Assembly (NCBI GenBank): GCA_037444665.1
Contig: JBBILZ010000025.1
Coordinates: 1 to 32,702 of the forward strand
Source: a candidate division WOR-3 bacterium
GTDB lineage: Bacteria > Hydrothermota > Tepidihabitantia > SM23-42 > JAOAFX01
DNA: 32,702 nt
Direction: 5' to 3'
Shown here in pieces: positions 586-29,260 of this stretch. A model generated the notes under the pieces. That model had not been told where the DNA came from and did no database searches. It saw only the letters and a program-made list of their open reading frames with translations. Each line of letters opens with the position of its first letter. The stretch's first letter is position 1. The position numbers and the translations under genes were made by a program.

Positions 586-957
586 TTATTCTCTTTTTAA
601 ATCAATGGGTAATCTTCTAATCCTTACTCTCTTCCTCCCAATTACAATAATACTATTTTTAAACTCTTTTATTTTCGGCAACACATTTATAAGTAGAGCA
701 TTTATTTGATCGGTAGAATAATTCCCCACCCTGAGAATAATAACACTCGGCTCAATGTCCTTAGTATATGCAATTATTGAACCAAAATCTAAATCTTCAG
801 TGAGTATCGTATATCCATTTTCTTTAGCAAAATTTACTATTTCTTCATCGGTGGCGTCTGCCATTTGAAATTCAGTAATATGATAACACTCAAAGCCGTG
901 CTGCCTCAAAAATTGAACTGTCCGTAGTGATATCGGTGCATCTGCAAGGATTACCAT
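586..957 (-). CDS. DUF5615 family PIN-like toxin (VapC45-like)
   Basis: MVILADAPIS, ATDEEI, LTEDLDFG, VIILR and RVRIRRLPI motifs; 123 aa; overlaps the DUF433 gene by 1 nt. Confidence 0.85.
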   Translation of the reverse strand: MVILADAPISLRTVQFLRQHGFECYHITEFQMADATDEEIVNFAKENGYTILTEDLDFGSIIAYTKDIEPSVIILRVGNYSTDQINALLINVLPKIKEFKNSIIVIGRKRVRIRRLPIDLKRE

Positions 958-1181
958 TAAGTTACTTCAACAATTTCTTCCTGAATTATCCAGGCTGAAT
1001 ATTTTATTGCTTGTAGAATATCCTCACGCTCAAGATATGGATAATCTTTCAGTATCTCTTCAATAGACATGCCGGTGGCAAGCAAATCTAATACCTTTGA
1101 GACCGGAAATCGCATCCCGCGGATACAGGGTTTGCCATTAAAAATTCTGGGGTCAATGGTAATCCTATCAAATTGTATCAT
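957..1181 (-). CDS. DUF433 family antitoxin (VapB45-like)
   Basis: RITIDPRIFNGKPCIRGMRFPV...EEILKDYPYLEREDILQAIKY signature; AAGGAG RBS upstream. Confidence 0.92.
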   Translation of the reverse strand: MIQFDRITIDPRIFNGKPCIRGMRFPVSKVLDLLATGMSIEEILKDYPYLEREDILQAIKYSAWIIQEEIVEVT

Positions 1182-3188: not shown

Positions 3189-4610
3189 TTAAAAATTAAA
3201 TGATTCAGAAAAATTAAATTCAAAACCTTCTGGATAATACTCACCGCGTTCTTTGTTCAGAATATATTTCCCTTTATATTCTTTTTTGATTATTTTTTTC
3301 AACATTTTTATGAATTGGTCAATTTCATCCTTTGTATTATAGATGCCAAAACTTATTCTCACTGCTCCTGGTATCTCAGAACGGTCTCTGTTGATAATCA
3401 TTTTTTCAATCCTCTTTGCATCTTCAGGTGATACACCGAGCAGACATTTTACATACGGATGGGCGCAGAAACAACCATTGCGCACGCCAATGCCTCCTTC
3501 ATAGCTCAGGATTGCAGAAACCAGTGCGTGGTCCATACCTTTTATATTAAATGCAATCACACCGAGTCTTTTATGTGCATTCTTTGGCTTGTTGTCACCA
3601 TAGATAATCACCTCGGGTAATTCATTCAATCGTTTGAGTGCATATTTGGTCAATTTCGTTTCGTGTTTTATAATCTGGTCAAAACCAACAGATTGAATTA
3701 ATTTAATCACTTCAGCAAGTGCGACCACACCGACGATATCCGGTGTTCCTGCTTCTTCTCTTTCTGGCAGGTCCTTCCAATAGGCACTTTCCAGGTCAAC
3801 GATATCCGCAGTGCCACCACCTACATCATCAGGTGTACCGAATTGGAATGCTGATTTATCACCCACGAGAACTCCAATTCCATAGGGTGCATACATTTTG
3901 TGCGCGGAGAATGAGAGATAGTCAATGTGTTCAGGGTCGGCTTTTGGTTTTACATCAATAGGACGATGGGGTGCTAATTGTGCCGCATCAACTGCAATTT
4001 GGGTTCCTGCTTCATGAACCTTGCGTGCATATTCATATATGGGATTGATGTAGCCGGTTACATTAGACGCACCACTTATTGCTACAAGTTGCAATTTACC
4101 AGCATACTTTTTGAGCTTTTCATAGAAATCGTTATTGTTAATCGTTCCGTCCGGATTCAGTTCTATATGGATGACCTGGGCGACCTTGCGCCAGGGAAGT
4201 TCATTTGAGTGATGTTCCATAATTGTTGTCAGAACAATGGGTTTTTCTTTGCCCATTGCCGGGCATTGGAATCGGCTGGAGAGTTTATTTATCGCTTCCG
4301 TTGTATTTTTGCAGAATATTACACAACAATGTTCATCAGCATGGACAAAATCGGCAATTATTTTTCTTGCCTCTTCAAAGACCCAGGACGAGAGTTGTGA
4401 TTTAAATCCTGTGCCGCGGTGCACATTTGAATACCATTTTAAAAATTCACCGATTTTTTTCTGAACTGGTAATAATGCAGGTGTACTGGCTGCATTATCA
4501 AAATTTATATATCTTTTTCTGGAGCCATCAAGCAGAGGAACTTCTTCATTGACTCCAATTATCTGTTTTGCCAGTTTTTTTAATGTAATATTATAATTTT
4601 TGCCAGACAT
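3189..4610 (-). CDS. Class V PLP aminotransferase / cysteine desulfurase-like protein
   Basis: INFDNAAST, YSNVHRG, MEHHSNELPW, VDAAQ, SAHKMYAPYG (PLP Lys) and VRNGCFCAHP; start moved to ATG 4610 (MSGKNY), overlapping the comM 3' end. Confidence 0.9.
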   Translation of the reverse strand: MSGKNYNITLKKLAKQIIGVNEEVPLLDGSRKRYINFDNAASTPALLPVQKKIGEFLKWYSNVHRGTGFKSQLSSWVFEEARKIIADFVHADEHCCVIFCKNTTEAINKLSSRFQCPAMGKEKPIVLTTIMEHHSNELPWRKVAQVIHIELNPDGTINNNDFYEKLKKYAGKLQLVAISGASNVTGYINPIYEYARKVHEAGTQIAVDAAQLAPHRPIDVKPKADPEHIDYLSFSAHKMYAPYGIGVLVGDKSAFQFGTPDDVGGGTADIVDLESAYWKDLPEREEAGTPDIVGVVALAEVIKLIQSVGFDQIIKHETKLTKYALKRLNELPEVIIYGDNKPKNAHKRLGVIAFNIKGMDHALVSAILSYEGGIGVRNGCFCAHPYVKCLLGVSPEDAKRIEKMIINRDRSEIPGAVRISFGIYNTKDEIDQFIKMLKKIIKKEYKGKYILNKERGEYYPEGFEFNFSESFNF

Positions 4611-6135
4611 CTTTATCAAGACTCCTGTATTGTATTGCTTCAGCAATATGCTGAACTTTAATATTTTCTGCTGATTCAAGGTCAGCAATGGTCCTTGCTA
4701 CTTTAAGTATCTTATCATAGGCACGGGCAGAGAGTCCAAATTTCTCTATTGCGGTTTTGAGCAGGCTCTGGGATTCATCGTCTATGGGACAGAATTTTTT
4801 AATATCCTTTGTTTCCATATGGGCATTACAGAAAATCTTTCTTTTGGTTTCTTTGAATCTGTTCAATTGTGCTTCGCGTGCTCTATTTACCCGCTTTTTA
4901 ATTTCTTCAGACGGTTCGCCAGCTTGTGCAGATTTTAACTCGTCATATTTCAGTGAAGGGACTTCAATATGGATATCAATGCGGTCAAGCAGTGGTCCTG
5001 ATATCTTTGCCCGATAATGCTGGATTTGAACTGGTGTGCAACGACATTCATGATAGGGGTCAGTGAAATAGCCACAGGGACACGGATTCATTGCCGCTGC
5101 CAGCATAAACCTTGCAGGATAGGTGAGGGTCACTTTTGCCCGACCGATTGTGACCGAACCATCCTCAAGCGGCTGGCGTAAGACCTCAAGGACATTTTTG
5201 TGAAATTCGGGTAGTTCATCAAGAAATAATACACCATTATGTGCTAATGAGACTTCACCGGGTTTGGGAATATGGCCACCACCAATTATGCCTGCATCAG
5301 AGATTGTATGATGGGGTGCACGGAAGGGTCTTGTGCCGATTAATGATTCACCTGCAGGAAGTGTGCCGGCAACCGAATGAATCTTGGTCGTTTCCAATGC
5401 TTCTAAGAGTGTCATCGGTGGCAAGATTGTCACCAGCCTGCGGGCAAGCATTGTTTTGCCAGTCCCAGGTGGTCCAATCATTAAAATATTATGTCCTCCA
5501 GCAGCAGCAATCTCAAGGGCTCTTTTCGCATGATACTGCCCTTTGACCTCGGCAAAATCAAACGGATATTTTGAAACTGCCTTGAAGATTGCTTCTCTGT
5601 CTACAACTACTGGATTGATTTGAAGTTCACCATTTAAAAATGCTACAACTTCAATAAGGTTGTCAAATCCATAGACATTTATCCCTTCAACAATTGCTGC
5701 CTCACGGGCATTTGCTGTGGGAACTATCAAACCCTCAAGTCTGTTTGCCTGTGCAGCAAGGGAGATGGAGATTGCACCTTTAATTGGCCTTAACGAACCA
5801 TCAAGGGATAATTCACCGAGAATGGCAAACCGCTCAAGACTATTTGTTCTAACAGTCTGGGATGCGGCAAGGATCCCAATGGCGATGGGCAGGTCAAAAC
5901 TTGACCCTTCTTTTTTTATATCTGCCGGTGCTAAATTTACTGTTATTCTCTTTGAAGGAAAGTGAAAACCCGCATTCTTTATCGCTGCATACACGCGGTC
6001 TTTTGATTCCTTTACTGCATTATCAGGCAGTCCAACTGTAGTAAAACCAGGAAGTCCTCCTGATAAATCTACCTCAACATTTACCAGGTAGCCATCTATT
6101 CCGTATGTAGCACAGGACAATACCCTTGAGAGCAT
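4591..6135 (-). CDS. comM: YifB/ComM Mg-chelatase-like AAA+ ATPase
   Basis: VGLPDNAVKES, ITVNLAPADIKKEGSSFDLPIA, Walker A GPPGTGKT, PFRAPHH, LFLDELPEF, AMNPCPCG and SGPLLDRID. Confidence 0.95.
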   Translation of the reverse strand: MLSRVLSCATYGIDGYLVNVEVDLSGGLPGFTTVGLPDNAVKESKDRVYAAIKNAGFHFPSKRITVNLAPADIKKEGSSFDLPIAIGILAASQTVRTNSLERFAILGELSLDGSLRPIKGAISISLAAQANRLEGLIVPTANAREAAIVEGINVYGFDNLIEVVAFLNGELQINPVVVDREAIFKAVSKYPFDFAEVKGQYHAKRALEIAAAGGHNILMIGPPGTGKTMLARRLVTILPPMTLLEALETTKIHSVAGTLPAGESLIGTRPFRAPHHTISDAGIIGGGHIPKPGEVSLAHNGVLFLDELPEFHKNVLEVLRQPLEDGSVTIGRAKVTLTYPARFMLAAAMNPCPCGYFTDPYHECRCTPVQIQHYRAKISGPLLDRIDIHIEVPSLKYDELKSAQAGEPSEEIKKRVNRAREAQLNRFKETKRKIFCNAHMETKDIKKFCPIDDESQSLLKTAIEKFGLSARAYDKILKVARTIADLESAENIKVQHIAEAIQYRSLDKDVWQKL

Positions 6136-6140
6136 AGCCG

Positions 6141-6168
6141 ATTATATACAAATAAATTTTTGTGTCAA
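6141..6168 (-). promoter_or_regulatory. Sigma70-type promoter of comM (leaderless)
   Basis: Perfect TTGACA-N16-TATAAT, ATG 5 nt downstream. Confidence 0.75.
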
Positions 6169-6192
6169 CAATATTTTATAAATAATTTTTTG

Positions 6193-6684
6193 CTATTTCA
6201 AGCCTTCAGGCAGTGGGTCAATGACCAGTTGAATTGTAGTACGACGCGCCCGCGAATAGTTGTTGTAACTTGAGAATTCATAATCGCCCGGGTCTTTTGC
6301 TAATCCCCTGGTAACTGGCTGGTTATGGATATAATCAAGATGTTGTTTTAATTGTTCCGCATTCTCTACAAGTTCTGCATCAAAACTTTGAGACCAGACA
6401 GTCCCTTCGCGCTTCTTTACTTCGTTGAATTTACGAGCGAAATTCCCTTTAATCAATTTCATAATCTTTGATACAGTAAACATCTTACCTGGTTGAATGA
6501 TGAGATAGAAAGATTCAGGCATAATCAGATATCCAAATATTTTGTAATTGAGCATATAACGGTGATAGCCAATGGATAGCAATAAGAACCGCGACCAGTG
6601 TGGGTCATTAAAGATTTCAATACAGTCCTTGGTTGTGGTCCAGATGTAGTATATTGCACCGGGTTTTATAACTCTTTTGGGCAT
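6193..6684 (-). CDS. REP-associated tyrosine transposase (RAYT/Y1_Tnp) homolog with a degenerate HUH motif
   Basis: Follows the RAYT pattern PG-x-YYI-x-T, YLIMP, SKIMKLIKG-x-FAR-x-FN, GTVW, YIH-x-x-PV-x-RGL, P-x-DY-x-FSSY; but MP[ND]H-x-H reads MPESFY. Confidence 0.85.
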   Translation of the reverse strand: MPKRVIKPGAIYYIWTTTKDCIEIFNDPHWSRFLLLSIGYHRYMLNYKIFGYLIMPESFYLIIQPGKMFTVSKIMKLIKGNFARKFNEVKKREGTVWSQSFDAELVENAEQLKQHLDYIHNQPVTRGLAKDPGDYEFSSYNNYSRARRTTIQLVIDPLPEGLK

Positions 6685-6692
6685 AATACCCC

Positions 6693-7760
6693 CTATTCTA
6701 AGATTTGTTCCATTACATCCCGATTCAAATTTTTTACAATCAAGGTGGTCAATTTTAATAGATTTTCATAATCTTCATAAGAGATGATACTCGCTGCAGA
6801 ATGCACATAACGCGTGGGAATACCGAGTGCCAGACTCGGGACGCCAAAATTAGTAAGGTGAATTGCACCTGTATCATAACCACCCTTGATTGATGTGAGA
6901 TGGTATGGAATATTATTTGTTTCTGCGAGTTCTATTACAAAATCACGCAGTTTTTTGTGGGGAATCATTGTCCGGTCATAGACCAGAATTGCCACACCGG
7001 CACCGAGTTTTTCTATTGTGTCTGCGCCATTGCCAGGTGTATCACGGCAGATACTGACATCAATGGCAAAGGCGAAGTCGGGCTGAATTAATGATGCAGA
7101 GGTCCGTGCGCCTCTTAATCCTACCTCTTCTTGAACCGTACCCACTAAAAAGACTTTATTGGAATGGTCAATTGCAACCAATTCATCCAACATATCAACG
7201 AGTAATGCACAGCCCATCCTGTCATCCCATGCCTTGGCAAGCAAAAGATCATTGTTTGACATCTGTTCAAAGGGCCCTACTGGTATTATCGGGTCGCCGG
7301 GCTTAATCCCTAATTTCTCTACGGGCTGAAAATTTTTGGTGGCACCCACATCAATATACATCTGTTCAAGTTCAGGCATTTTTCTTCGTTCTTCTGGAGA
7401 GAGTTCATGGATTGGTTTTAAACCGATAACACCCGGGATTAACTCCCCTTTTTTGTTTTTTATCTTGACCCGCATACCAGGAAGATTGCCATCCCACCAT
7501 CCACCTATCGGTAGAAATTTTATATATCCATCCTTGGTTATTTCTTTGACCATAAAACCAATCTCATCCATATGTGCCGCAAACATAATTTTGGGGGCAT
7601 CATTTGTGCCATCTTTCTGGGCAATAACACTGCCGATTCGGTCCCTCAAAACCCTTGTATGTTTTGCAAATTTCTTTTTCAGTATCTCCACAACATCATC
7701 CTCATACCCCGAGATACCGAATATCTCAGACATCTCCTTTAAAGTTTGCAGATGATTCAT
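6693..7760 (-). CDS. M42 family metallo-aminopeptidase (TET/FrvX-like)
   Basis: GISGYE, AAHMDEIG, KAWDDRMG, VQEEVGLRGA, AIDV and IPTRYVHS motifs. Confidence 0.93.
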   Translation of the reverse strand: MNHLQTLKEMSEIFGISGYEDDVVEILKKKFAKHTRVLRDRIGSVIAQKDGTNDAPKIMFAAHMDEIGFMVKEITKDGYIKFLPIGGWWDGNLPGMRVKIKNKKGELIPGVIGLKPIHELSPEERRKMPELEQMYIDVGATKNFQPVEKLGIKPGDPIIPVGPFEQMSNNDLLLAKAWDDRMGCALLVDMLDELVAIDHSNKVFLVGTVQEEVGLRGARTSASLIQPDFAFAIDVSICRDTPGNGADTIEKLGAGVAILVYDRTMIPHKKLRDFVIELAETNNIPYHLTSIKGGYDTGAIHLTNFGVPSLALGIPTRYVHSAASIISYEDYENLLKLTTLIVKNLNRDVMEQILE

Positions 7761-7769
7761 TTTACCCCC

Positions 7770-9689
<1,920 letters not shown>

Positions 9690-9995
9690 TTACTCCTTAG
9701 ATTGACCTCCTTTTTCAATAATAAATTTTATATCTTTTAAATTTGCTCCTGATTTATTAAATCGCTCAATTATTTTATTTTTCAATAAGAATAATTGTGC
9801 CTGCCATACAGGATTATCAACCACAACAAAAAGGGTTGCCTCATTAATATTTATTGCACGGGCATGCTGGGCAATCTTATCTCCTACAATCTGGGGCCAG
9901 AGTTGGACGAGCTGTATATCCTTAAGACGGTCTTCCAGATTCATAGACTTTAAAACCTGGGGAAGTATTTTATTAATTCGCTGTGGATAACGCAA
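9690..9995 (-). CDS. dciA: DUF721 / DciA helicase-loader family protein
   Basis: WPQIVGDKIAQH...LFVVVDNPVWQAQL motif; lies between recF and gyrB; start uncertain (TTG 9995 after GAGGT, or ATG 10013). Confidence 0.8.
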   Translation of the reverse strand: MRYPQRINKILPQVLKSMNLEDRLKDIQLVQLWPQIVGDKIAQHARAININEATLFVVVDNPVWQAQLFLLKNKIIERFNKSGANLKDIKFIIEKGGQSKE

Positions 9996-11031
9996 TGTTA
10001 CCTCTTTGAACATTAAATGTTGCTTTATTGGTCCAATTAATATCATCAGGATGCTGGACTGTTGCGTAAAAAACCTGACCTTTTATTAAATCAAAAAAAT
10101 TCTGCTCGTGTATTTTATCAAGTTCTATTGTCACCTCATCAAGGAGATATATTGGCTGGTCGTTTTTCAATTGTTGAATAATATCGGCTTCAGTCAATTT
10201 CAAAATTAATGCGAGCATTCTGCATTCACCTTCTGAGGCAAAATTTCGGGCAGGTTTGCTATCAATGGTAATATAAAGGTCATCACGGTGTGGTCCAATA
10301 ATTGTTTCACCCCTTTTTGTTTCCAGTGCTTCGTTCTTTTTTATCAGTTCTAAATTCATCTCCATCTCAGGGCAGGAACTCAGGTACTCAAGTGAAATGT
10401 TAGGCAAACCCATATTAATACCTTTTTGTTTGACGTTTTCCTGGAGCATGGGCAGGACCTGGCTCCGTTCTTTATAGATTGCATTTCCCCATAAAATAAG
10501 TTGTTCATTGTATGTGTCAAGGAGTGAGGTATTTTTTTCTTTTATAGACTGCTGGAGAAAACAGTTCCGCTGACGCAATACTTTACGATACTCTGAAAGA
10601 TCCGCACCATAAACAGGATTCAATTTGATTAAGAGCCAGTCCAGAAAATTTCTGCGCAGTGCCGGCGCACCTCTGATAATCCAGATGTCATTAAGGGACA
10701 TCGTGATTACTGAGAGCCAGCCCGCATAATCAGCAAGCCGATTCTTTTCATTTCCATTGAGTGTATATCTCTTCACACCATTATAAAAAATACTTCCGGT
10801 ACTGCCATTAGAAATTCCAGTGACCCGCAGGTATGGGCTATTAAATTTCACAAGATTTTTTTCATCACTGGTCCGAAAAGATATACCATAGGCGGAAAAA
10901 AAGATTGCCTCCAAAAGATTGGTTTTACCTGCACCATTTTCACCGGTAATTAGATTAAAACCATCGCAAAAACAGAGCTCGTTATCAGTAAGATTGCGAA
11001 ATCCTTCAAACTCAATTTTGTGTAGTATCAT
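9973..11031 (-). CDS. recF: DNA replication/repair protein RecF
   Basis: FRNL, GENGAGKTNLLEAI, P-x-x-RR-x-FLD, GPHRDDL, ASEGE and LLDEV-x-x-ELD. Confidence 0.93.
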   Translation of the reverse strand: MILHKIEFEGFRNLTDNELCFCDGFNLITGENGAGKTNLLEAIFFSAYGISFRTSDEKNLVKFNSPYLRVTGISNGSTGSIFYNGVKRYTLNGNEKNRLADYAGWLSVITMSLNDIWIIRGAPALRRNFLDWLLIKLNPVYGADLSEYRKVLRQRNCFLQQSIKEKNTSLLDTYNEQLILWGNAIYKERSQVLPMLQENVKQKGINMGLPNISLEYLSSCPEMEMNLELIKKNEALETKRGETIIGPHRDDLYITIDSKPARNFASEGECRMLALILKLTEADIIQQLKNDQPIYLLDEVTIELDKIHEQNFFDLIKGQVFYATVQHPDDINWTNKATFNVQRGNIALSTAN

Positions 11032-11038
11032 TACTATA

Positions 11039-11066
11039 ATTATATATATTTAACGCAAAAAGTCAA
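11039..11066 (-). promoter_or_regulatory. Sigma70-type promoter of the recF-dciA-gyrB operon (leaderless)
   Basis: TTGACT-N16-TATAAT, ATG 7 nt downstream; the -35 box lies inside the 3' end of the upstream gene. Confidence 0.7.
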
Positions 11067-13662
11067 GGGTTGGAGTTATTCCTATTAGCAGTTTGATTTT
11101 TTTATCATGGTTGACTGCTATACCTAATTTTGGAATAATCTGAATAAATCCAAAACAACTTTTTGATTCCAGTGCCATTTCTATACCAGTGCTATAATAT
11201 TTTTCACCATTTTGAGTTAGTGCATAATCAAAAAAGATGATTCCAAAAATGTCTTCAAAATAGATATTGGGATTCCATAGTCCTTTTCTTAATTTTAATA
11301 ACCTGTGTGAGTATTCAATGTTGAATAATATTCCTTTTTGTGCGAGAATCGGGTCATAACCACGTATTGGGATACTGGTTGAGTCAGGATTTTGCGAATC
11401 TGAAAAACCAATCAATTCCGCACGCAGTTCACCAGTAAAAATTAAATAATTCAGACCTGTGCCACAGAAATAACCGACCCTGTTAATGGTTGATTTTAGA
11501 AATTTTCTTTCAAAAGGAATAGAAAAATTCCAATAGCAATTATATTCAGGTTTTTGATAGTTTATTGTAAAATTTGGATTAATTTCTTTTCTCTGATATT
11601 CATTAAAAGATTTAACATTCAGATTGAAGATTATGTTTTTAATACCTGGGTTCAGAGTATTAAAGACCGGGCAGGAACAGGATAATTTAAAATAATCATT
11701 ATAATTATAAAACATTTCAATGAGTGCAGGACTGAAAAATTTTGATTGTAAATTTGATTGCAAGAAAAGTTTATTGGTCAATTGGTCATAGCCTAAGTAA
11801 CTAATGTAGAAGTTTTCATCAGTGGCATCACTACCTGCAAAGAGGACGCCATATTGCCATTTTCTAAATGTAGAGTCCACAGGCAGAAATACGGGCAATC
11901 TAATTGAGGGAAAAGTGGTTTGCATAATATTTAGATAGTTACCATTTTTTATATCAATTTTCTGGGCGTGGAAGTCGGGTTTTGGACCTGGTTGCCACTC
12001 TTTGAGTGTATACTTTTCAGGTGATGAAAACTTTTTATAAATATCAAAGCCATTTGTCTTTAGTTTGCTGAAATAGAGCGTATCTTCAACAAAAACAAAG
12101 GAATTGTTAAAACCATTTTTTGTATAACACAAAATACTTTCGGGTGCAGAGATATTTATTGCATAAATCTGATGTTTGCCATCAAAATTGGCAATAAATC
12201 CGAGCCAGTCATTTTGCATAAAACATAGATGACCTTCGGTCCAGGGTGTGCGCAGAATGGGAGTAAATTTAGAGGATTCGGGGTCAAAAAGATATAGATC
12301 TGGGTTTTCAAATTCATCACGTCCACACACAACAATCCAATTGCCATTGGTTTCAATTTCATCAATTAACAGAACACCTTCCCAGATTTTTTTCTTTAAT
12401 TCTGGTGTATACAACCAGATTTCTGAACCGAACCAATGTGATTTCTGTTTCACATAGAGGACAACATCATTGTCCAGCACGCAGAAACTTCTGATGTCAT
12501 CAGTAAAAAGGATATGTTCTTTTTTTGTCAGCAGATCTAATTTGTGCAGGGTAGATGTGATACCATATCCATTATAATATGTATTTTTAGTGCGTTTTAA
12601 ATCAGCTGTAACATAATAGAGTTGATGATTATAAATTCTAATCCTGGATGTGATTTGGCTGTTGAGGTTTATTAAAACCTTTTCTTTGTGTGTGTTTAAA
12701 TCAAGTTCAATGACCTGGTATATATTTTTATATCTGAAACAATTAAGTTTAATCGCTGACTCATAGACATAGAACAACTTACCATTATCAGCGACAAGAG
12801 AAGAAATATACCAGCCCCTGTTCGTTATTTTATCGCCTTCAATATGATTTACTGAATTTTTGGTGTTACTATGTTTTGCCCATTCTTTGAACAATGCAGG
12901 AAAAGATTTTCCATATATTTTCTTTGCTGCAATATCAAGCCCTAATCCAGGTAATATTGCTGAGACTGGTGCCCAGGGGTATGAGCCATAGATTGAAAAA
13001 AACTTTTTGAATCTTTCTTCTCCATATTGTTCAGCAAGAAAATCAAAGAATTCACCTCCGTATAGATACATTTTGCCATACGGAAATGATAGCGGTTCAT
13101 TTGTGGCATCAATAATATCGGGAAATTGTTTTTCAGCAATACAGGTACTGACATAGGCATCAAAAAATCCATCATTCAGTCTGCCTTCATAAGGTGAAAT
13201 TTTTGATTCGCTGTACACAGTAATTCCTTCTATTAGCCAGCCTGGTGAATACATATTGGGTTGAAATAAAGAACCAAATAATTTGGTGAGATAACGGGGT
13301 ACACCATTTGTGCGGGTCATATGGGCAATATGGGTGAACTCATGGACACTGAGCACTCTGTACCAGTCTTCAATGCCTTCAAGGTAAATACCCGCGCCCG
13401 GGGCATATGTAAAGAAATGGATGTTATAAAATACTGGATTGGCATATCCATTACTCAATGTGCCGATGTCTTCAATGACAACGGGCACTGCTCTTGTATT
13501 ATTGCCAGTAAGATTGACAATATATTTGCGATAGTATTCAAGATTTTTCAATGCCTTCAGGGCTTCATATTCATAGCCGGGTTTATAAATAACCTGGAAG
13601 TTTTCTGTCTTTATTACCTGCCAGTCAAACCAGTTAAAAAGAAGTATGGATATGAGTATCAC
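11050..13662 (-). CDS. Putative envelope protein: N-terminal gluzincin-like HExxH domain, beta-propeller-like middle, beta-barrel-like C-terminus
   Basis: W-x-VIKTENF-x-VIY, HEFTH, PGWLIEGITVY and YLYGG-x-F; alternating aromatic beta-strands at the C-terminus (IRGY...EYS); GTG start. Confidence 0.65.
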   Translation of the reverse strand: MILISILLFNWFDWQVIKTENFQVIYKPGYEYEALKALKNLEYYRKYIVNLTGNNTRAVPVVIEDIGTLSNGYANPVFYNIHFFTYAPGAGIYLEGIEDWYRVLSVHEFTHIAHMTRTNGVPRYLTKLFGSLFQPNMYSPGWLIEGITVYSESKISPYEGRLNDGFFDAYVSTCIAEKQFPDIIDATNEPLSFPYGKMYLYGGEFFDFLAEQYGEERFKKFFSIYGSYPWAPVSAILPGLGLDIAAKKIYGKSFPALFKEWAKHSNTKNSVNHIEGDKITNRGWYISSLVADNGKLFYVYESAIKLNCFRYKNIYQVIELDLNTHKEKVLINLNSQITSRIRIYNHQLYYVTADLKRTKNTYYNGYGITSTLHKLDLLTKKEHILFTDDIRSFCVLDNDVVLYVKQKSHWFGSEIWLYTPELKKKIWEGVLLIDEIETNGNWIVVCGRDEFENPDLYLFDPESSKFTPILRTPWTEGHLCFMQNDWLGFIANFDGKHQIYAINISAPESILCYTKNGFNNSFVFVEDTLYFSKLKTNGFDIYKKFSSPEKYTLKEWQPGPKPDFHAQKIDIKNGNYLNIMQTTFPSIRLPVFLPVDSTFRKWQYGVLFAGSDATDENFYISYLGYDQLTNKLFLQSNLQSKFFSPALIEMFYNYNDYFKLSCSCPVFNTLNPGIKNIIFNLNVKSFNEYQRKEINPNFTINYQKPEYNCYWNFSIPFERKFLKSTINRVGYFCGTGLNYLIFTGELRAELIGFSDSQNPDSTSIPIRGYDPILAQKGILFNIEYSHRLLKLRKGLWNPNIYFEDIFGIIFFDYALTQNGEKYYSTGIEMALESKSCFGFIQIIPKLGIAVNHDKKIKLLIGITPTLDFLR

Positions 13663-13667
13663 AGAAG

Positions 13668-13695
13668 ATTATAATCACTATAATCAAAAATGCAA
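13668..13695 (-). promoter_or_regulatory. Sigma70-type promoter (leaderless)
   Basis: TTGCAT-N16-TATAAT, GTG 5 nt downstream. Confidence 0.6.
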
Positions 13696-13745
13696 TATTA
13701 CTTATTAAGGGCTAATCCTGAGATATGGTTTTATGTAATTTTAAT

Positions 13746-15062
13746 CTAAAAATATTCAAAGACAATGAGGGTTTCTATGTGATAGGTTTGTGGAAACATA
13801 TCAAAAAGATAAACATTTTTGATAGTATAGCCATTATTGATTAATAGATTTGCATCACGGGCAAGGGTTGCAGGATTGCACGAGAGATAGATTATTTTTT
13901 TTATTTTCATCTTTGATAAACTTTCAATCACAGATTTTGCAACACCTTTTCGTGGCGGGTCCATAATTACAGTTTCTCCGATCTTTAATATATCAATCTT
14001 TTGCTCTACTCTGGCCTGAATGAATTCAATGTTTTTAATCCTGTTAATTTGTGCATTTTTAATGCCATCTTTGACCGCATACAAATTTTCTTCTATGGCA
14101 ATTACCTTTTTACAAACTTGAGCCAGACATATTCCAATTGCACCAACTCCTGCATAAAGGTCAATGATTGTTGCACCCGTGATTTCTGATTTTATTTTTT
14201 GTATAATTTTTTCAAATATTTTAATATTTACCTGAAAGAAAGAAATCGGGCTGATTTGAAAGAGTTTATTATCTATGAATTCTTCATAAAAGTCAGTGCC
14301 GCCAAGCAGAATATTTTTGTTTCCCAATATACGATTAGTTTTTTGATTATTAATATTCTGGCTAATACCCACAAGTCCCGGGATTTCGTTAACGAGATCT
14401 TCATAGAGTTTCGCGGTAATGTTTTTTTCCTTTGTTACAAAAATAAGATATAATTGACCGGTATTTGTGCCCCTGCGTAAGATTATGTGCCGTAAATTAC
14501 CTGAATGGCTCAGTTCGTTATAAATTTTTATCCCGGACTCTGCAATCCGTTTTCTGATAATAGTTAGTGCCTGATTAATTCCATTCTGGTTGATATAACA
14601 GATATCGTGGTTCACTACCTCGTGTGTGTTCTTTTTGAAATACCCAATCCTGAGTCCATCTTTATCCTGAACTGGAAGTTGAGCGCGATTGCGATAATAC
14701 CAGGGTTGGTCTGCAATTACTTCAATATTACTACATTCAATCCTGCCGATATGCCGGAGTGTATCAATCAGAATTTCTTTTTTTAATTTGACCTGATATT
14801 GATAATCAATATGTTGAAACTGACAACCACCGCACAACATAAAGACCGGGCATCTTGGTTCAATCCGATATTGCGAAGGCTCTTTTATTGTAATACACTT
14901 TGCTATATTATAATCCCTTTTTTCAGTTATTATTTCTGCTTTAATCTCTTCTCCAGGTATGACAAAATCAACAAAACAGACTTTGCCATCAATATAGCCG
15001 ATGCCCTGTGCACCAAGATTTAATTTTTCAATCTTTAATTCAACCATTTTCCGGTCTGCCAT
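13746..15062 (-). CDS. rlmD: 23S rRNA (uracil-5)-methyltransferase RlmD/RumA family
   Basis: TRAM domain, C-x5-CGGC, YRNR, SFFQVN, DLYAGVG, DPPRKG, YLSCNPATLARD and DMFPQTYHIE. Confidence 0.93.
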   Translation of the reverse strand: MADRKMVELKIEKLNLGAQGIGYIDGKVCFVDFVIPGEEIKAEIITEKRDYNIAKCITIKEPSQYRIEPRCPVFMLCGGCQFQHIDYQYQVKLKKEILIDTLRHIGRIECSNIEVIADQPWYYRNRAQLPVQDKDGLRIGYFKKNTHEVVNHDICYINQNGINQALTIIRKRIAESGIKIYNELSHSGNLRHIILRRGTNTGQLYLIFVTKEKNITAKLYEDLVNEIPGLVGISQNINNQKTNRILGNKNILLGGTDFYEEFIDNKLFQISPISFFQVNIKIFEKIIQKIKSEITGATIIDLYAGVGAIGICLAQVCKKVIAIEENLYAVKDGIKNAQINRIKNIEFIQARVEQKIDILKIGETVIMDPPRKGVAKSVIESLSKMKIKKIIYLSCNPATLARDANLLINNGYTIKNVYLFDMFPQTYHIETLIVFEYF

Positions 15063-27050: not shown

Positions 27051-27208
27051 GTAGTTGTCCGATTAATCGGGCATTATATCAAGGATTGGTTTAGAAACAG
27101 GTCTAAGGTTGTAAGGCATAGCATCGGCATGGTTATTGGGTATTGGGCGTGGATGCTGGTATGGAGGGCATTGTCTCTGCAAAAAAGCCTCATAAATGTA
27201 GCAACTAC
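27051..27208 (+). mobile_element. REP doublet (REPIN-like), copy A
   Basis: GTAGttgtccgattaatcgggc...gcctcataaatgtagcaaCTAC; near-identical reverse complement of 29099-29260. Confidence 0.85.
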
Positions 27209-29065: not shown

Positions 29066-29103
29066 CGCCTCCACCAATTTTGCTCAATCTTAGCAAGCGT
29101 AGT
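29066..29103 (+). repeat. 38-bp direct repeat, copy 2 (displaced tmRNA 3' end)
   Basis: Identical to 28673-28710; preceded by a split T-arm gggttcgatt...ccc. Confidence 0.95.
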
Positions 29104-29260
29104 TGCCTCATTTATGAGGCTTTTTTGCAGAGACAATGCCCTATGACCATACCAGCATCCACGCCCAATACCCAATAACCATGCCGATGCTATGCCTTAC
29201 AACCTTAGATCCGTTTCAAAACAAATCCCTGATATAATGCCCGATAAATCGGGCAACTAC
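29099..29260 (-). mobile_element. REP doublet (REPIN-like), copy B
   Basis: GTAGttgcctcatttatgaggc...gcccgataaatcgggcaaCTAC; both REPs have perfect stems; inverted relative to copy A. Confidence 0.88.

Follow-up and report, generated by a model that had tools for sequence, protein, structure and literature searches.

An apparently nuclease-dead RAYT homolog retained in the recF-dciA-gyrB gene row of a WOR-3 lineage

The gene and its surroundings

The window, a stretch of 32,702 nucleotides from a candidate division WOR-3 bacterium, carries a tightly packed gene row that is headed by a long open reading frame and continues through recF, dciA, gyrB and an M42-family aminopeptidase gene to a small gene for a RAYT homolog, which we call dRAYT (Table 1). 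An earlier note on this DNA had described dRAYT as an intact frame of 163 residues; the frame is real, and it is read from the minus strand. Among related genomes, dciA was found in 10/10 loci that extend that far, and the C-terminus of the long frame at the head of the row is 38-43% conserved in seven relatives' loci.

Table 1. Features of the dRAYT gene row, with positions in the window
Feature	Position	Strand	Remarks
Open reading frame of 870 aa	11050..13662	-	First gene of the row; no Pfam or NCBIfam match
recF	9973..11031	-	NCBIfam TIGR00611, 285 bits
dciA	9690..10046	-	Pfam DciA, E 5.5e-20; start, as listed, overlaps the end of recF
gyrB	7770..9686	-	NCBIfam gyrB, 973 bits
M42-family aminopeptidase gene	6693..7760	-	Pfam Peptidase_M42, E 3e-101
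Spacer from M42 stop to dRAYT start, 8 nt	6685..6692	-	GGGG Shine-Dalgarno-like run; direct reading
dRAYT CDS (apparently nuclease-dead RAYT homolog)	6193..6684	-	163 aa plus stop; ATG 6684-6682, stop 6195-6193
Former HUH motif, codons P56-E57-S58-F59-Y60	6505..6519	-	Corresponds to H59-M60-H61 of E. coli TnpA-REP
Best-conserved block of dRAYT	6409..6474	-	Column entropy and invariant K76, K79, N81, R84
Former YxxxNP catalytic-helix motif, codons Y118-I-H-N-Q122-P123	6316..6333	-	Y115 corresponds to Y118, N119 to Q122
A+T-rich spacer 3' of dRAYT, 57 nt	6136..6192	-	No REP
YifB/ComM-type Mg-chelatase-like ATPase gene	4591..6135	-	TIGR00368, 691 bits

The spacer between the M42 gene and dRAYT reads GGGGTATT on the coding strand and lies immediately 3' of the TAG stop of the M42 gene, and both the distance and the GGGG run that had been read there earlier are confirmed. 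No promoter-like or terminator-like site was seen within this gap, in agreement with the earlier claim that dRAYT has no promoter of its own; the minus strand has a single 12/12 sigma-70 match, a perfect TTGACA-16-TATAAT at 6168-6141, which lies 3' of dRAYT and ahead of yifB/comM. Farther upstream, recF has an 11/12 promoter-like site at 11066-11039, and a reading of positions 13600-13800 for a conserved palindrome in the operon leader yielded none, only an A+T-rich promoter-like stretch. We propose that dRAYT may be expressed from a recF-dciA-gyrB-M42 transcript through read-through and coupled translation, in which case it would be present whenever these replication and repair genes are expressed. 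Sequencing runs covering positions 5600-9800 comprise nine DNA runs from five studies, one perhaps from the source sample, and zero RNA runs.

RAYT fold, former active site and candidate binding surface

The assignment of dRAYT to the RAYT family was borne out by both profile searches and structure comparison. The protein scores 88 bits against NCBIfam NF047646 (REP_Tyr_transpos, RAYT; cut-off 80) and 35.3 bits against Pfam Y1_Tnp (PF01797; cut-off 23), and its matches in the ESM Atlas are Y1_Tnp clusters only. An AF2 model (pLDDT 88.8) contains the RAYT fold, a beta-sheet that has alpha-B and alpha-C on one face and alpha-D on the other, and the C-terminal extension. The best Foldseek match of this model is 4er8_A, E. 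coli TnpA-REP (YafM), at E 4e-9, the protein with which the earlier note had suggested comparing it. VIA-align superposed the two over 141 residues with a Z of 17.7 and an rmsd of 2.3 Å, well above the Z of about 12 (12.8 or less) obtained with the class-1 TnpAs of IS608 and ISDra2. The two proteins are also similar in length, share a C-terminal extension and a conserved basic alpha-C, and are encoded by single-copy chromosomal genes, although their sequence identity is just 16-18%.

The class-1 TnpAs of IS200/IS605 elements have a YxxxQ motif, form an obligate interwoven dimer, have subterminal hairpins, often neighbor tnpB and occur in multiple copies. In dRAYT, by contrast, the Y118...Q122 spacing is not conserved, the Q being L or M in 28/41 orthologs; its fold is nearer to the monomeric 4er8, it is single-copy, and tnpB and adjoining hairpins are absent.

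Residue equivalences were taken from a profile alignment to 4er8 and use the numbering given in the available parts of Messing et al. (2012, PMC3479197). In this alignment H59, H61, Y115, N119 and H123 of 4er8 correspond to S58, Y60, Y118, Q122 and R126 of dRAYT, and all four core side-chain metal ligands (H59, H61, N119 and H123) are replaced. The motifs had previously been read as MPESFY (residues 55-60), TKDC (18-21), WS (97-98) and YIHNQP (118-123), and the translation agrees. The HUH motif is absent, with S58-F59-Y60 in its place. The earlier note had allowed that orthologs might retain HUH, yet all 41 have S-x-Y; the invariance of S58 and Y60 suggests that the remodelled pocket is constrained. 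The equivalent of N119, position 122, is L in 27 orthologs, Q in 13 and M in one, with N in 0/41, and the equivalent of H123, position 126, varies as R33/S5/L1/K1/G1 across the 41. These substitutions uphold the earlier proposal of a nuclease-dead centre.

The nucleophilic tyrosine behaves differently. Its retention had been claimed, and this is correct for the present copy, which has Y118, with Q at the position of the metal-binding Asn of the YxxxNP motif; as a conserved feature the claim fails, since position 118 is Y in 22 orthologs, H in 14, F in three and R in two, and a 39-row tree built from M42 requires at least seven changes there. In contrast, H, H and Y are all kept in 133/153 other nearest 50%-cluster representatives, and 4/4 other Y1 genes of the same genome have HUH. 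Judged from these alignments, this RAYT homolog has consistently lost its catalytic centre across orthologs, and the nucleophilic tyrosine appears dispensable in its lineage.

The former catalytic alpha-D region (residues 101-130) is the most variable part of dRAYT, at 1.1-1.3 bits, whereas alpha-C and beta-4 (residues 71-100) have column entropies of 0.14-0.25 bits, and residues 71-90 average 0.14-0.15 bits. The basic helix alpha-C, which contacts the DNA hairpin in TnpA-REP, is nearly invariant, and the invariant K76, K79, N81, R84 and K19 occupy the TnpA-REP DNA-contact positions R78, K81, Q83, H86 and R21. Other contacts are lost, namely R46 (L45 in dRAYT), K82 (G80), K91 (G94) and R97 (S100), of which K82 is critical for binding in E. 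coli. Similarly, the GTAG-reading residues Q95, W99, E100, H101 and R104 are S, D, A, E and E in dRAYT. Because several TnpA-REP contacts are lost, any hairpin recognition by dRAYT must differ from that in E. coli. The isoelectric point of the protein is 9.4.

The conserved C-terminal tail of dRAYT, RRTTIQLVID(156), is modelled at pLDDT 54-79, and the profile alignment to 4er8 ends at residue 139 of the latter, short of E161. The tail of TnpA-REP, with the acidic E161, is described as autoinhibitory and packed into the protein's own active site (Messing et al., 2012, PMC3479197). We considered QLVID as a beta-clamp motif and dropped the idea, because the TnpA-REP tail occupies its own active site and because [IVL]-x-[IV]-D tails are common in HUH-intact relatives.

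Inheritance, conservation and REP palindromes

Clear orthologs of dRAYT were found in 16/16 genomes of family f1 and in 25/31 genomes of its sister family f3. Each genome carries one copy, always at the same locus, except G140, a bin with 6% contamination, which has two syntenic copies; dRAYT thus shares the low copy number and vertical inheritance of RAYTs. The M42 gene lies directly upstream in 41/41 loci, at a spacing of about 8-22 nt in every genus as taken from coordinates, and gyrB lies upstream of M42 in 37/41, the other four ending at contig ends, so the gyrB-M42 synteny that the earlier note had proposed checking is strict. The downstream side is less constant: yifB/comM follows dRAYT in 11/12 loci of this genus (it is absent from L015) and in none elsewhere, and in family f3 its place is taken by a SAM methyltransferase gene, both at the two loci scanned (L043 and L049) and at the G147 locus. 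In three of four outgroup genomes (G107, G108 and G094) gyrB and M42 are adjacent without dRAYT. On this comparison of gene orders the gyrB-M42 pair is older than the dRAYT insertion, and the position of dRAYT can be a legacy of the site where an ancestral RAYT landed.

Purifying selection on dRAYT is very strong by codon-based estimates. The maximum-likelihood omega is 0.038 (GY+F3X4, 41 sequences). Every genome here is a metagenome bin, and the lineages are related; the 41 sequences do not count as independent observations. Within the genus, the NG86 estimate has a median of 0.022 and a range of 0.009-0.032, with finite dS in 23/66 pairs and dS below 1.5 in seven of them, compared with 0.041 for M42; a ratio below one had been anticipated in the earlier note. 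The reading frame is intact in 41/41 orthologs, which are 70-99% identical, and 70/163 columns are invariant. A seemingly truncated ortholog in G147 was rejected as a decayed copy, the break being an N run at a scaffold join. Compared with the sister family, dRAYT is 70-78% identical, GyrB 77-82%, M42 65-70%, DciA 43-52% and RecF 41-46%. This whole-protein conservation near the level of GyrB fits a protein partner equally well as a nucleic-acid target.

The nearest HUH-intact relatives of dRAYT are 40-52% identical to it and form an 'IKGNFARKYNE' subfamily found in Elusimicrobiota, Omnitrophota and other MAGs, and on one 509-bp contig from within the present genus. A second lineage without HUH, of the G107 type, is 41% identical and lies in another gene context. 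They share with dRAYT the near-invariant alpha-C motif, EYEFSSY and a C-terminal R-x-x-[IV]-Q-x-x-[IL]-[DE]. Unlike dRAYT, they keep HUH, WQ and YxxxNP and lie outside the gyrB context, and GTAG-N7-TTAA-N7-CTAC palindromes adjoin them in 13/15 loci examined, of 80 matches listed. Such a GTAG palindrome adjoins dRAYT in 0/41 loci, and no REP-type palindrome flanks it in the window, as the earlier note had observed. Within family f1, an HUH-intact RAYT of dRAYT's own subfamily is unassembled in 16/16 genomes, except for the 509-bp contig, which belongs to G114. More widely, genomes of the order contain HUH-intact RAYTs with their own GTAG-REP arrays, and HUH-intact paralogs are patchy: at E<=1e-30 they are matched in 10/49 and 8/49 of the order's genomes, with identities of 38-97%.

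The present genome has 117 perfect GTAG-tagged hairpins of one family, compared with 0-3 for control tetramers; the palindrome has the form GTAG-TT-stem-TTTA-stem-CTAC, and two other GTAG-REP types flank HUH-intact RAYTs. This GTAG-REP family of 117 hairpins is present in 28/47 genomes from the two dRAYT families and in 3/225 other WOR-3 genomes (one copy each), a co-distribution confined to related genomes and hence not independent evidence. By the strict pattern, it is missing from 19/47 genomes of the two families, and none of the five single-contig genomes with dRAYT (75-78% identity) contains the full palindrome. Tyr118 has no link to REP copy number: G146 has His118 and 23 copies, and G117 and G119 have Tyr and none. 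A search for the cognate transposase of the GTAGTTGC REP family among the four HUH-intact RAYTs of this genome found 0/4 flanked by the family; the two genomes richest in GTAGTTGC REP have in common a 97-100% identical RAYT of another type.

Possible roles of dRAYT

We suggest that a GTAG-palindrome-associated RAYT inserted into the extragenic space behind the older gyrB-M42 pair, in a common ancestor of the two families of this WOR-3 / 'Stahlbacteria' lineage. The inserted copy would then have shed both flanking REPs and every active-site metal ligand, and would have come to do without a nucleophilic tyrosine. As the likeliest mechanism, what remains would bind structured nucleic acid without cutting it, the target being a ssDNA hairpin or possibly an RNA hairpin. 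Because a non-cutting dRAYT is kept nearly unchanged at the same spot in some forty relatives, it must have a job that does not involve cutting, and we regard its being exapted and non-cutting as very probable. That nucleic-acid binding is the function retained is at best slightly favored over its opposite. For the reading as a whole, a RAYT that has been exapted, no longer cuts and has probably kept its binding to structured nucleic acid, we see slightly better than even chances.

Simple decay of a recently inactivated transposase gene has nothing in its favor beyond the missing motif; with every frame intact, an omega this low, the same substitutions across two families and strict synteny, we consider it practically untenable. 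It is also very improbable that dRAYT is still an enzyme, in which E/D57, S58, Y60, R126 and D156 form a pocket for other chemistry on DNA or RNA, with or without metal. The invariant, non-drifting S58 and Y60 and the conserved pocket-lining tail would fit such an enzyme, but no metal ligands are left, the former nucleophile is exchanged freely between Y, H, F and R, and helix alpha-D is the most variable part; we know of no precedent for such chemistry. A protein-binding adaptor without a nucleic-acid role, whose partner might be the M42 peptidase translated along with it or else a factor of replication or repair, would account for conservation near that of GyrB over most of dRAYT, the fixed replacement residues and the tight coupling to M42 in every genus. 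Yet conservation peaks in the basic helix through which TnpA-REP touches DNA, the protein is basic overall, and the M42 gene works without dRAYT in outgroup genomes, which makes an adaptor of this kind unlikely.

Two further explanations tie dRAYT to the REPs themselves. In one, the dead RAYT couples gyrase or RecF-type repair to REP hairpins, as an accessory that recruits gyrase to extruded GTAG-REPs. REP/BIME clusters bind gyrase in E. coli, dRAYT always sits in the row of recF, dciA and gyrB, and the hairpins of this genome, like their enrichment in the two dRAYT families, would suit such a link. We nevertheless think it rather improbable, since the linkage may be historical given the outgroups that have gyrB-M42 alone, the immediate neighbor of dRAYT is the peptidase gene and not gyrB, and the REP family, whose co-distribution is among related genomes only, is missing under the strict pattern from 19/47 genomes of the two families, and its full palindrome from all the single-contig dRAYT carriers. 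A predicted complex of GyrB (11-row alignment) with dRAYT (41 rows), run without controls, scored 0.01 where the mark is 0.32, and this speaks neither for nor against the link. In the other explanation, dRAYT suppresses REP mobility by occupying GTAG hairpins and so limiting their mobilisation by HUH-intact RAYTs. Its closest live relatives do use GTAG palindromes, HUH-intact RAYTs with their own arrays exist in the order, and family f1 nearly lacks an assembled HUH-intact member of dRAYT's subfamily. However, REPs and RAYTs are patchy and turn over fast, and a decoy for fast-evolving elements should co-vary or vanish with them, while dRAYT is 70-99% identical throughout, including in REP-free complete genomes, and has changed the residues with which TnpA-REP reads GTAG; suppression therefore seems quite unlikely to us. 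More generally, none of these results favors a functional link with gyrase or with REP hairpins; we doubt that the target or partner is specifically gyrase, and are equally doubtful that it is specifically the GTAG-REPs of this genome.

A more specific extension of the exapted, non-cutting binder, which we put forward as unlikely in its full form, would make dRAYT a ssDNA-hairpin 'reader' at replication forks or daughter-strand gaps, produced along with RecF, DciA and GyrB. On extruded hairpins of the GTAG or a similar type, it would either act as a flag for gyrase or RecF or give protection against HUH-intact RAYTs. In this view dRAYT would belong to a class of DNA-binding proteins, derived from RAYTs and dead as nucleases, that has evolved repeatedly and gone unrecognised, the TnpA-side counterpart of TldR. 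TldRs are TnpB-derived, nuclease-dead, RNA-guided repressors; the TnpB family, the partner gene family in IS200/IS605 elements, has thus given rise to catalytically dead, host-retained DNA-binding proteins. The parallel is one of analogy only, as TldR is of unrelated fold and mechanism and is RNA-guided, whereas no guide RNA or regulated target for dRAYT is evident here.

Compared with E. coli TnpA-REP, dRAYT has lost the four metal ligands and the flanking REPs, its nucleophile is dispensable and its GTAG-reading residues have changed, and its gene has a fixed place in a row of housekeeping genes. Group 2/3 RAYTs (Bertels et al., 2017, PMC5581495) and class-2 TnpA-Y1 subclasses (Quentin et al., 2018, PMC6006769) resemble dRAYT in being single-copy, vertically inherited and no longer self-mobilising. 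They retain an intact HUH/Tyr centre and serve REP/REPIN mobilisation, as described in the available parts of both papers (PMC5581495; PMC6006769). These parts do not mention RAYT members without catalytic residues, although the supplementary alignments of Quentin et al. could still show some, and in the portion of the literature covered by our search we found no description of the exaptation of Y1 transposases into non-catalytic proteins.

That RAYTs are domesticated transposases is an accepted view, yet they have always been regarded as enzymes that bring their benefit through REP/REPIN movement. In the dRAYT lineage the enzyme chemistry appears to have been discarded, while the protein is among the best conserved in the genome and locked in a replication and repair gene row. 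It would thereby separate the binding function of the RAYT fold from its catalytic function, and may offer a clean 'catalytic-dead' RAYT, supplied by nature, with which to ask how proteins of this fold contribute to host physiology.

Gene context and selection

The dead-form RAYT homolog (dRAYT), which lacks the HUH histidines, is the final gene of a closely packed minus-strand row in which it follows an 870-aa ORF, recF, dciA, gyrB and an M42-family aminopeptidase gene. The intact ORF with its dead HUH is as the earlier note described it, although the strand, which that note left unstated, is minus. The M42 stop codon and the dRAYT start are separated by the reported 8 nt (coding strand GGGGTATT), and neither promoter-like nor terminator-like sites were seen in this gap or its surroundings. 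Within the 9.8 kb scanned, the sole 12/12 sigma-70 site, TTGACA-16-TATAAT, lies 3' of dRAYT, and an 11/12 match lies immediately 5' of recF. As called, the dciA ORF and the 3' end of recF share 74 nt (9973-10046), and dciA possibly starts further downstream.

Features of the window discussed in the text
Feature	Position	Strand	Basis or remark
dRAYT ORF, intact, 163 aa	ATG 6684, stop 6193-6195	-	ORF reading
M42-family aminopeptidase gene	6693-7760	-	family search
gyrB	7770-9686	-	family search
dciA	9690-10046	-	family search
recF	9973-11031	-	family search
870-aa ORF, first in the recF-dciA-gyrB row	11050-13662	-	without Pfam or NCBIfam match
Perfect sigma-70 match TTGACA-16-TATAAT, 57-nt spacer 5' of yifB/comM	6168-6141	-	promoter scan
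DUF5615 gene (123 aa) and preceding 74-aa ORF	586-1181	-	the two abut; may be a small two-gene module
REP copy	29099-29120	+	
REP copy	29239-29260	-	
REP copy, imperfect	about 27187-27208	-	

Screening 272 genomes from the phylum at an identity of at least 70% found orthologs in all 16 genomes of the window's own family (f1) and in 25 of the 31 genomes of its sister family (f3). A clear ortholog was lacking in six f3 genomes, five of which are 76–91% complete; G136, one of the six, carries a partial match at a contig end. The best non-ortholog match anywhere in the 272 genomes has 41% identity. The resulting set comprises 41 sequences from 40 genomes; in the 41st genome, G147, the gene is broken by an N-run at a scaffold join. 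M42 lies directly upstream of dRAYT in 41/41 loci and is preceded by gyrB in 37, the remaining four ending at contig ends, while recF and dciA are found in all ten relatives' loci that extend far enough. Identities between the window's genome and f3 are 70–78% for dRAYT, 77–82% for GyrB, 65–70% for M42, 43–52% for DciA and 41–46% for RecF; the C-terminal part of the 870-aa ORF is 38–43% conserved in seven f3 loci. A codon model of the 41 sequences yielded an omega of 0.038. For pairs within the genus, the median NG86 omega of dRAYT was 0.022 (finite dS in just 23 of 66 pairs; range 0.009–0.032 in the seven pairs with dS below 1.5), and that of M42 was 0.041. These comparisons indicate that selection maintains dRAYT, and at a single position.

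The gene 3' of dRAYT varies, being yifB in 11 of 12 loci of the window's genus and a SAM methyltransferase in both f3 loci scanned and in the G147 locus. The gyrB-M42 pair predates dRAYT: in genomes of three other families of the class (G107, G108 and G094), the two genes are adjacent without it. M42 directly after gyrB is an arrangement conserved in several families of the class, irrespective of whether dRAYT is present (6693-9686, minus strand, in the window; loci L054, L055 and L056).

Loss of the catalytic centre within a RAYT-type fold

The active site of TnpA-REP, the E. coli RAYT, is described as Y115, H59, H61, N119, H123 and E161 (Messing et al., 2012, PMC3479197). TnpA-REP residues were placed on dRAYT by profile alignment to its structure (PDB 4er8) together with pairwise alignment.

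Equivalents of TnpA-REP catalytic residues in dRAYT
TnpA-REP residue	dRAYT position	Window copy	41 orthologs
H59 (HUH)	58	S	S 41
H61 (HUH)	60	Y	Y 41
Y115 (nucleophile)	118	Y	Y 22, H 14, F 3, R 2
N119 (metal)	122	Q	L 27, Q 13, M 1
H123 (metal)	126	R	R 33, S 5, L 1, K 1, G 1

The catalytic Tyr reported for this copy is indeed present, but position 118 has changed at least seven times on the tree of the neighboring M42 protein (39 rows), and therefore it is not selected as Tyr. Across the orthologs, the catalytic centre is consistently gone. Both histidines and the Tyr are kept in 133 of 153 other aligned relatives (146 from a list of the 150 nearest representatives of 50%-identity clusters, omitting P0055, P0065, P0073 and P0076, plus seven more distant homologs), and HUH is kept in all four other Y1 genes of the window's genome; the loss seen in dRAYT is thus unusual among relatives. 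Together with the synteny and omega values, the uniform S58 and Y60 bear out what the earlier note expected of orthologs. Its description of the protein as dead, domesticated and co-expressed is well supported, co-expression being suggested by gene spacing and a gap with no visible promoter.

A second HUH-less lineage is represented by L048 (G107:C32, gene 4986-5444), which is 41% identical to dRAYT; here Q-x-H replaces HUH, and the Tyr is replaced by R. Its context differs from that of dRAYT, following ApbE, radical-SAM, NusG_II and heptaprenyl-synthase-I genes. Motif loss also affects a few more of the nearest cluster representatives (P0080, P0121).

In the checks that the earlier note proposed, dRAYT matches Pfam Y1_Tnp (35.3 bits, cut-off 23) and its predicted structure resembles TnpA-REP; it also passes the NCBIfam equivalog model of REP-associated tyrosine transposases (88 bits, cut-off 80). 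The top structural match of an AF2 model built from 25 aligned sequences (pLDDT 88.8) is 4er8_A, TnpA-REP with a REP hairpin (Foldseek E 4e-9). VIA-align gave Z 17.7 and an rmsd of 2.3 Å over 141 residues for this pair, in contrast to just Z 10.5–12.8 over ~100 residues for the IS608, ISDra2 and IS200 transposases. The predicted fold is RAYT-type, not IS200-type. While dRAYT belongs to the TnpA-REP/RAYT lineage by descent and fold, three defining RAYT features are absent: HUH, flanking REPs and a Y---NP motif that is conserved. The appropriate label is RAYT-derived protein, not transposase. All RAYT classes are described as sharing an HUH and Tyr centre (Bertels et al., 2017, PMC5581495; Quentin et al., 2018, PMC6006769); term searches of both papers turned up no reference to members lacking activity, and a full-text literature search found no description of a catalytically dead RAYT.

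Origin and relation to GTAG-REPs

The nearest HUH-intact relatives are 40–52% identical to dRAYT and have in common with it a near-invariant alpha-C motif (IKGNFARKYNE), EYEFSSY and a tail motif. GTAG-N7-TTAA-N7-CTAC palindromes lie directly beside the genes of these relatives in 13 of 15 loci, examined from 80 returned in public genomes, mostly Elusimicrobiota and Omnitrophota. A search beside dRAYT in the window found no palindromes of REP type, as had been reported, and a GTAG hairpin adjoins the gene at 0/41 orthologous loci. Under the simplest history, a RAYT associated with GTAG-REPs would have landed downstream of gyrB-M42 in the common ancestor of f1 and f3, shed both its REPs and its catalytic chemistry, and been retained for another purpose.

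In HUH-intact loci L065 and L066, GTAG palindromes lie inside the coding region (positions about 1777-1821), coinciding with a 20–30-residue insertion relative to dRAYT; they may be in-frame read-through REP insertions. L063 (G114:C69, from a genome of the same genus) is a whole 509-bp contig holding only the interior of an HUH-intact RAYT of dRAYT's own subfamily, and reflects either assembly breakage at a gene flanked by repeats or bin contamination.

The window's genome carries a classical GTAG-tagged REP family, with 117 perfect GTAG-NN-6-bp-stem-4-nt-loop hairpins compared with 0–3 for eight control tetramers. Most have the form GTAG-TT-GC(NNNN)-TTTA-(NNNN)GC-AACTAC, and compensatory changes distinguish the three dominant stem variants. 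The genome's four HUH-intact Y1/RAYT genes are L001 (C36), L004 (C18), L005 (C16) and L002 (C2), three of which are embedded in their own repeat arrays (types GTAG-GGACAG... and GTAG-CGCCCGAC..., and one without GTAG). The longest ORFs continue into these arrays, and gene calling would thereby extend the N-termini with residues derived from the repeats; L004 is truncated, and L002 encodes 287 aa with a C-terminal extension.

The earlier note had proposed that dRAYT could link gyrase or repair to REP hairpins, or suppress REP mobility. The REP core pattern occurs in 28 of 47 f1 and f3 genomes versus 3 of 225 other WOR-3 genomes (one copy each), a co-distribution with dRAYT that is suggestive and rests on related genomes. 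However, the strict pattern has no copy in 19 of the 47, and the full GTAG-N8-TTTA-N8-CTAC palindrome is missing from all five single-contig genomes keeping dRAYT. The co-distribution is thereby contradicted as a dependency. The gyrase/REP mechanism is weakened by the analysis and remains speculation. RAYTs of the order with an intact HUH have a patchy distribution (10/49 and 8/49 genomes gave matches), which is the expectation for mobile REP systems, whereas dRAYT is universal. From these distributions, we conclude that dRAYT functions independently of the GTAG-TT...TTTA...AACTAC REP family; it may act on hairpins of another kind or on a conserved protein.

Conserved surfaces and likely function

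Residues 71-100 of dRAYT, corresponding to helix alpha-C and the next strand, are almost invariant (mean entropy 0.14–0.25 bits). In TnpA-REP, alpha-C is described as occupying the REP hairpin's minor groove (Messing et al., 2012, PMC3479197). K76, K79, N81, R84 and K19 of dRAYT are fixed at the positions of the TnpA-REP DNA contacts R78, K81, Q83, H86 and R21, and the protein is basic (pI 9.4). The most variable part is residues 101-130, the ex-catalytic helix alpha-D and its surroundings (1.1–1.3 bits). This pattern is what would be expected if hairpin or nucleic-acid binding has been kept and catalysis dropped. However, a simple model in which dRAYT binds the same hairpin without cutting is disfavored, as the TnpA-REP contacts R46, K82, K91 and R97 are not kept and the GTAG-reading residues all differ. 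S58 and Y60, which stand in for the HUH histidines, do not vary among the orthologs, which also counts against that model and means that the old pocket is still constrained. dRAYT matters as a clean, deeply conserved example of a catalytically dead RAYT derivative.
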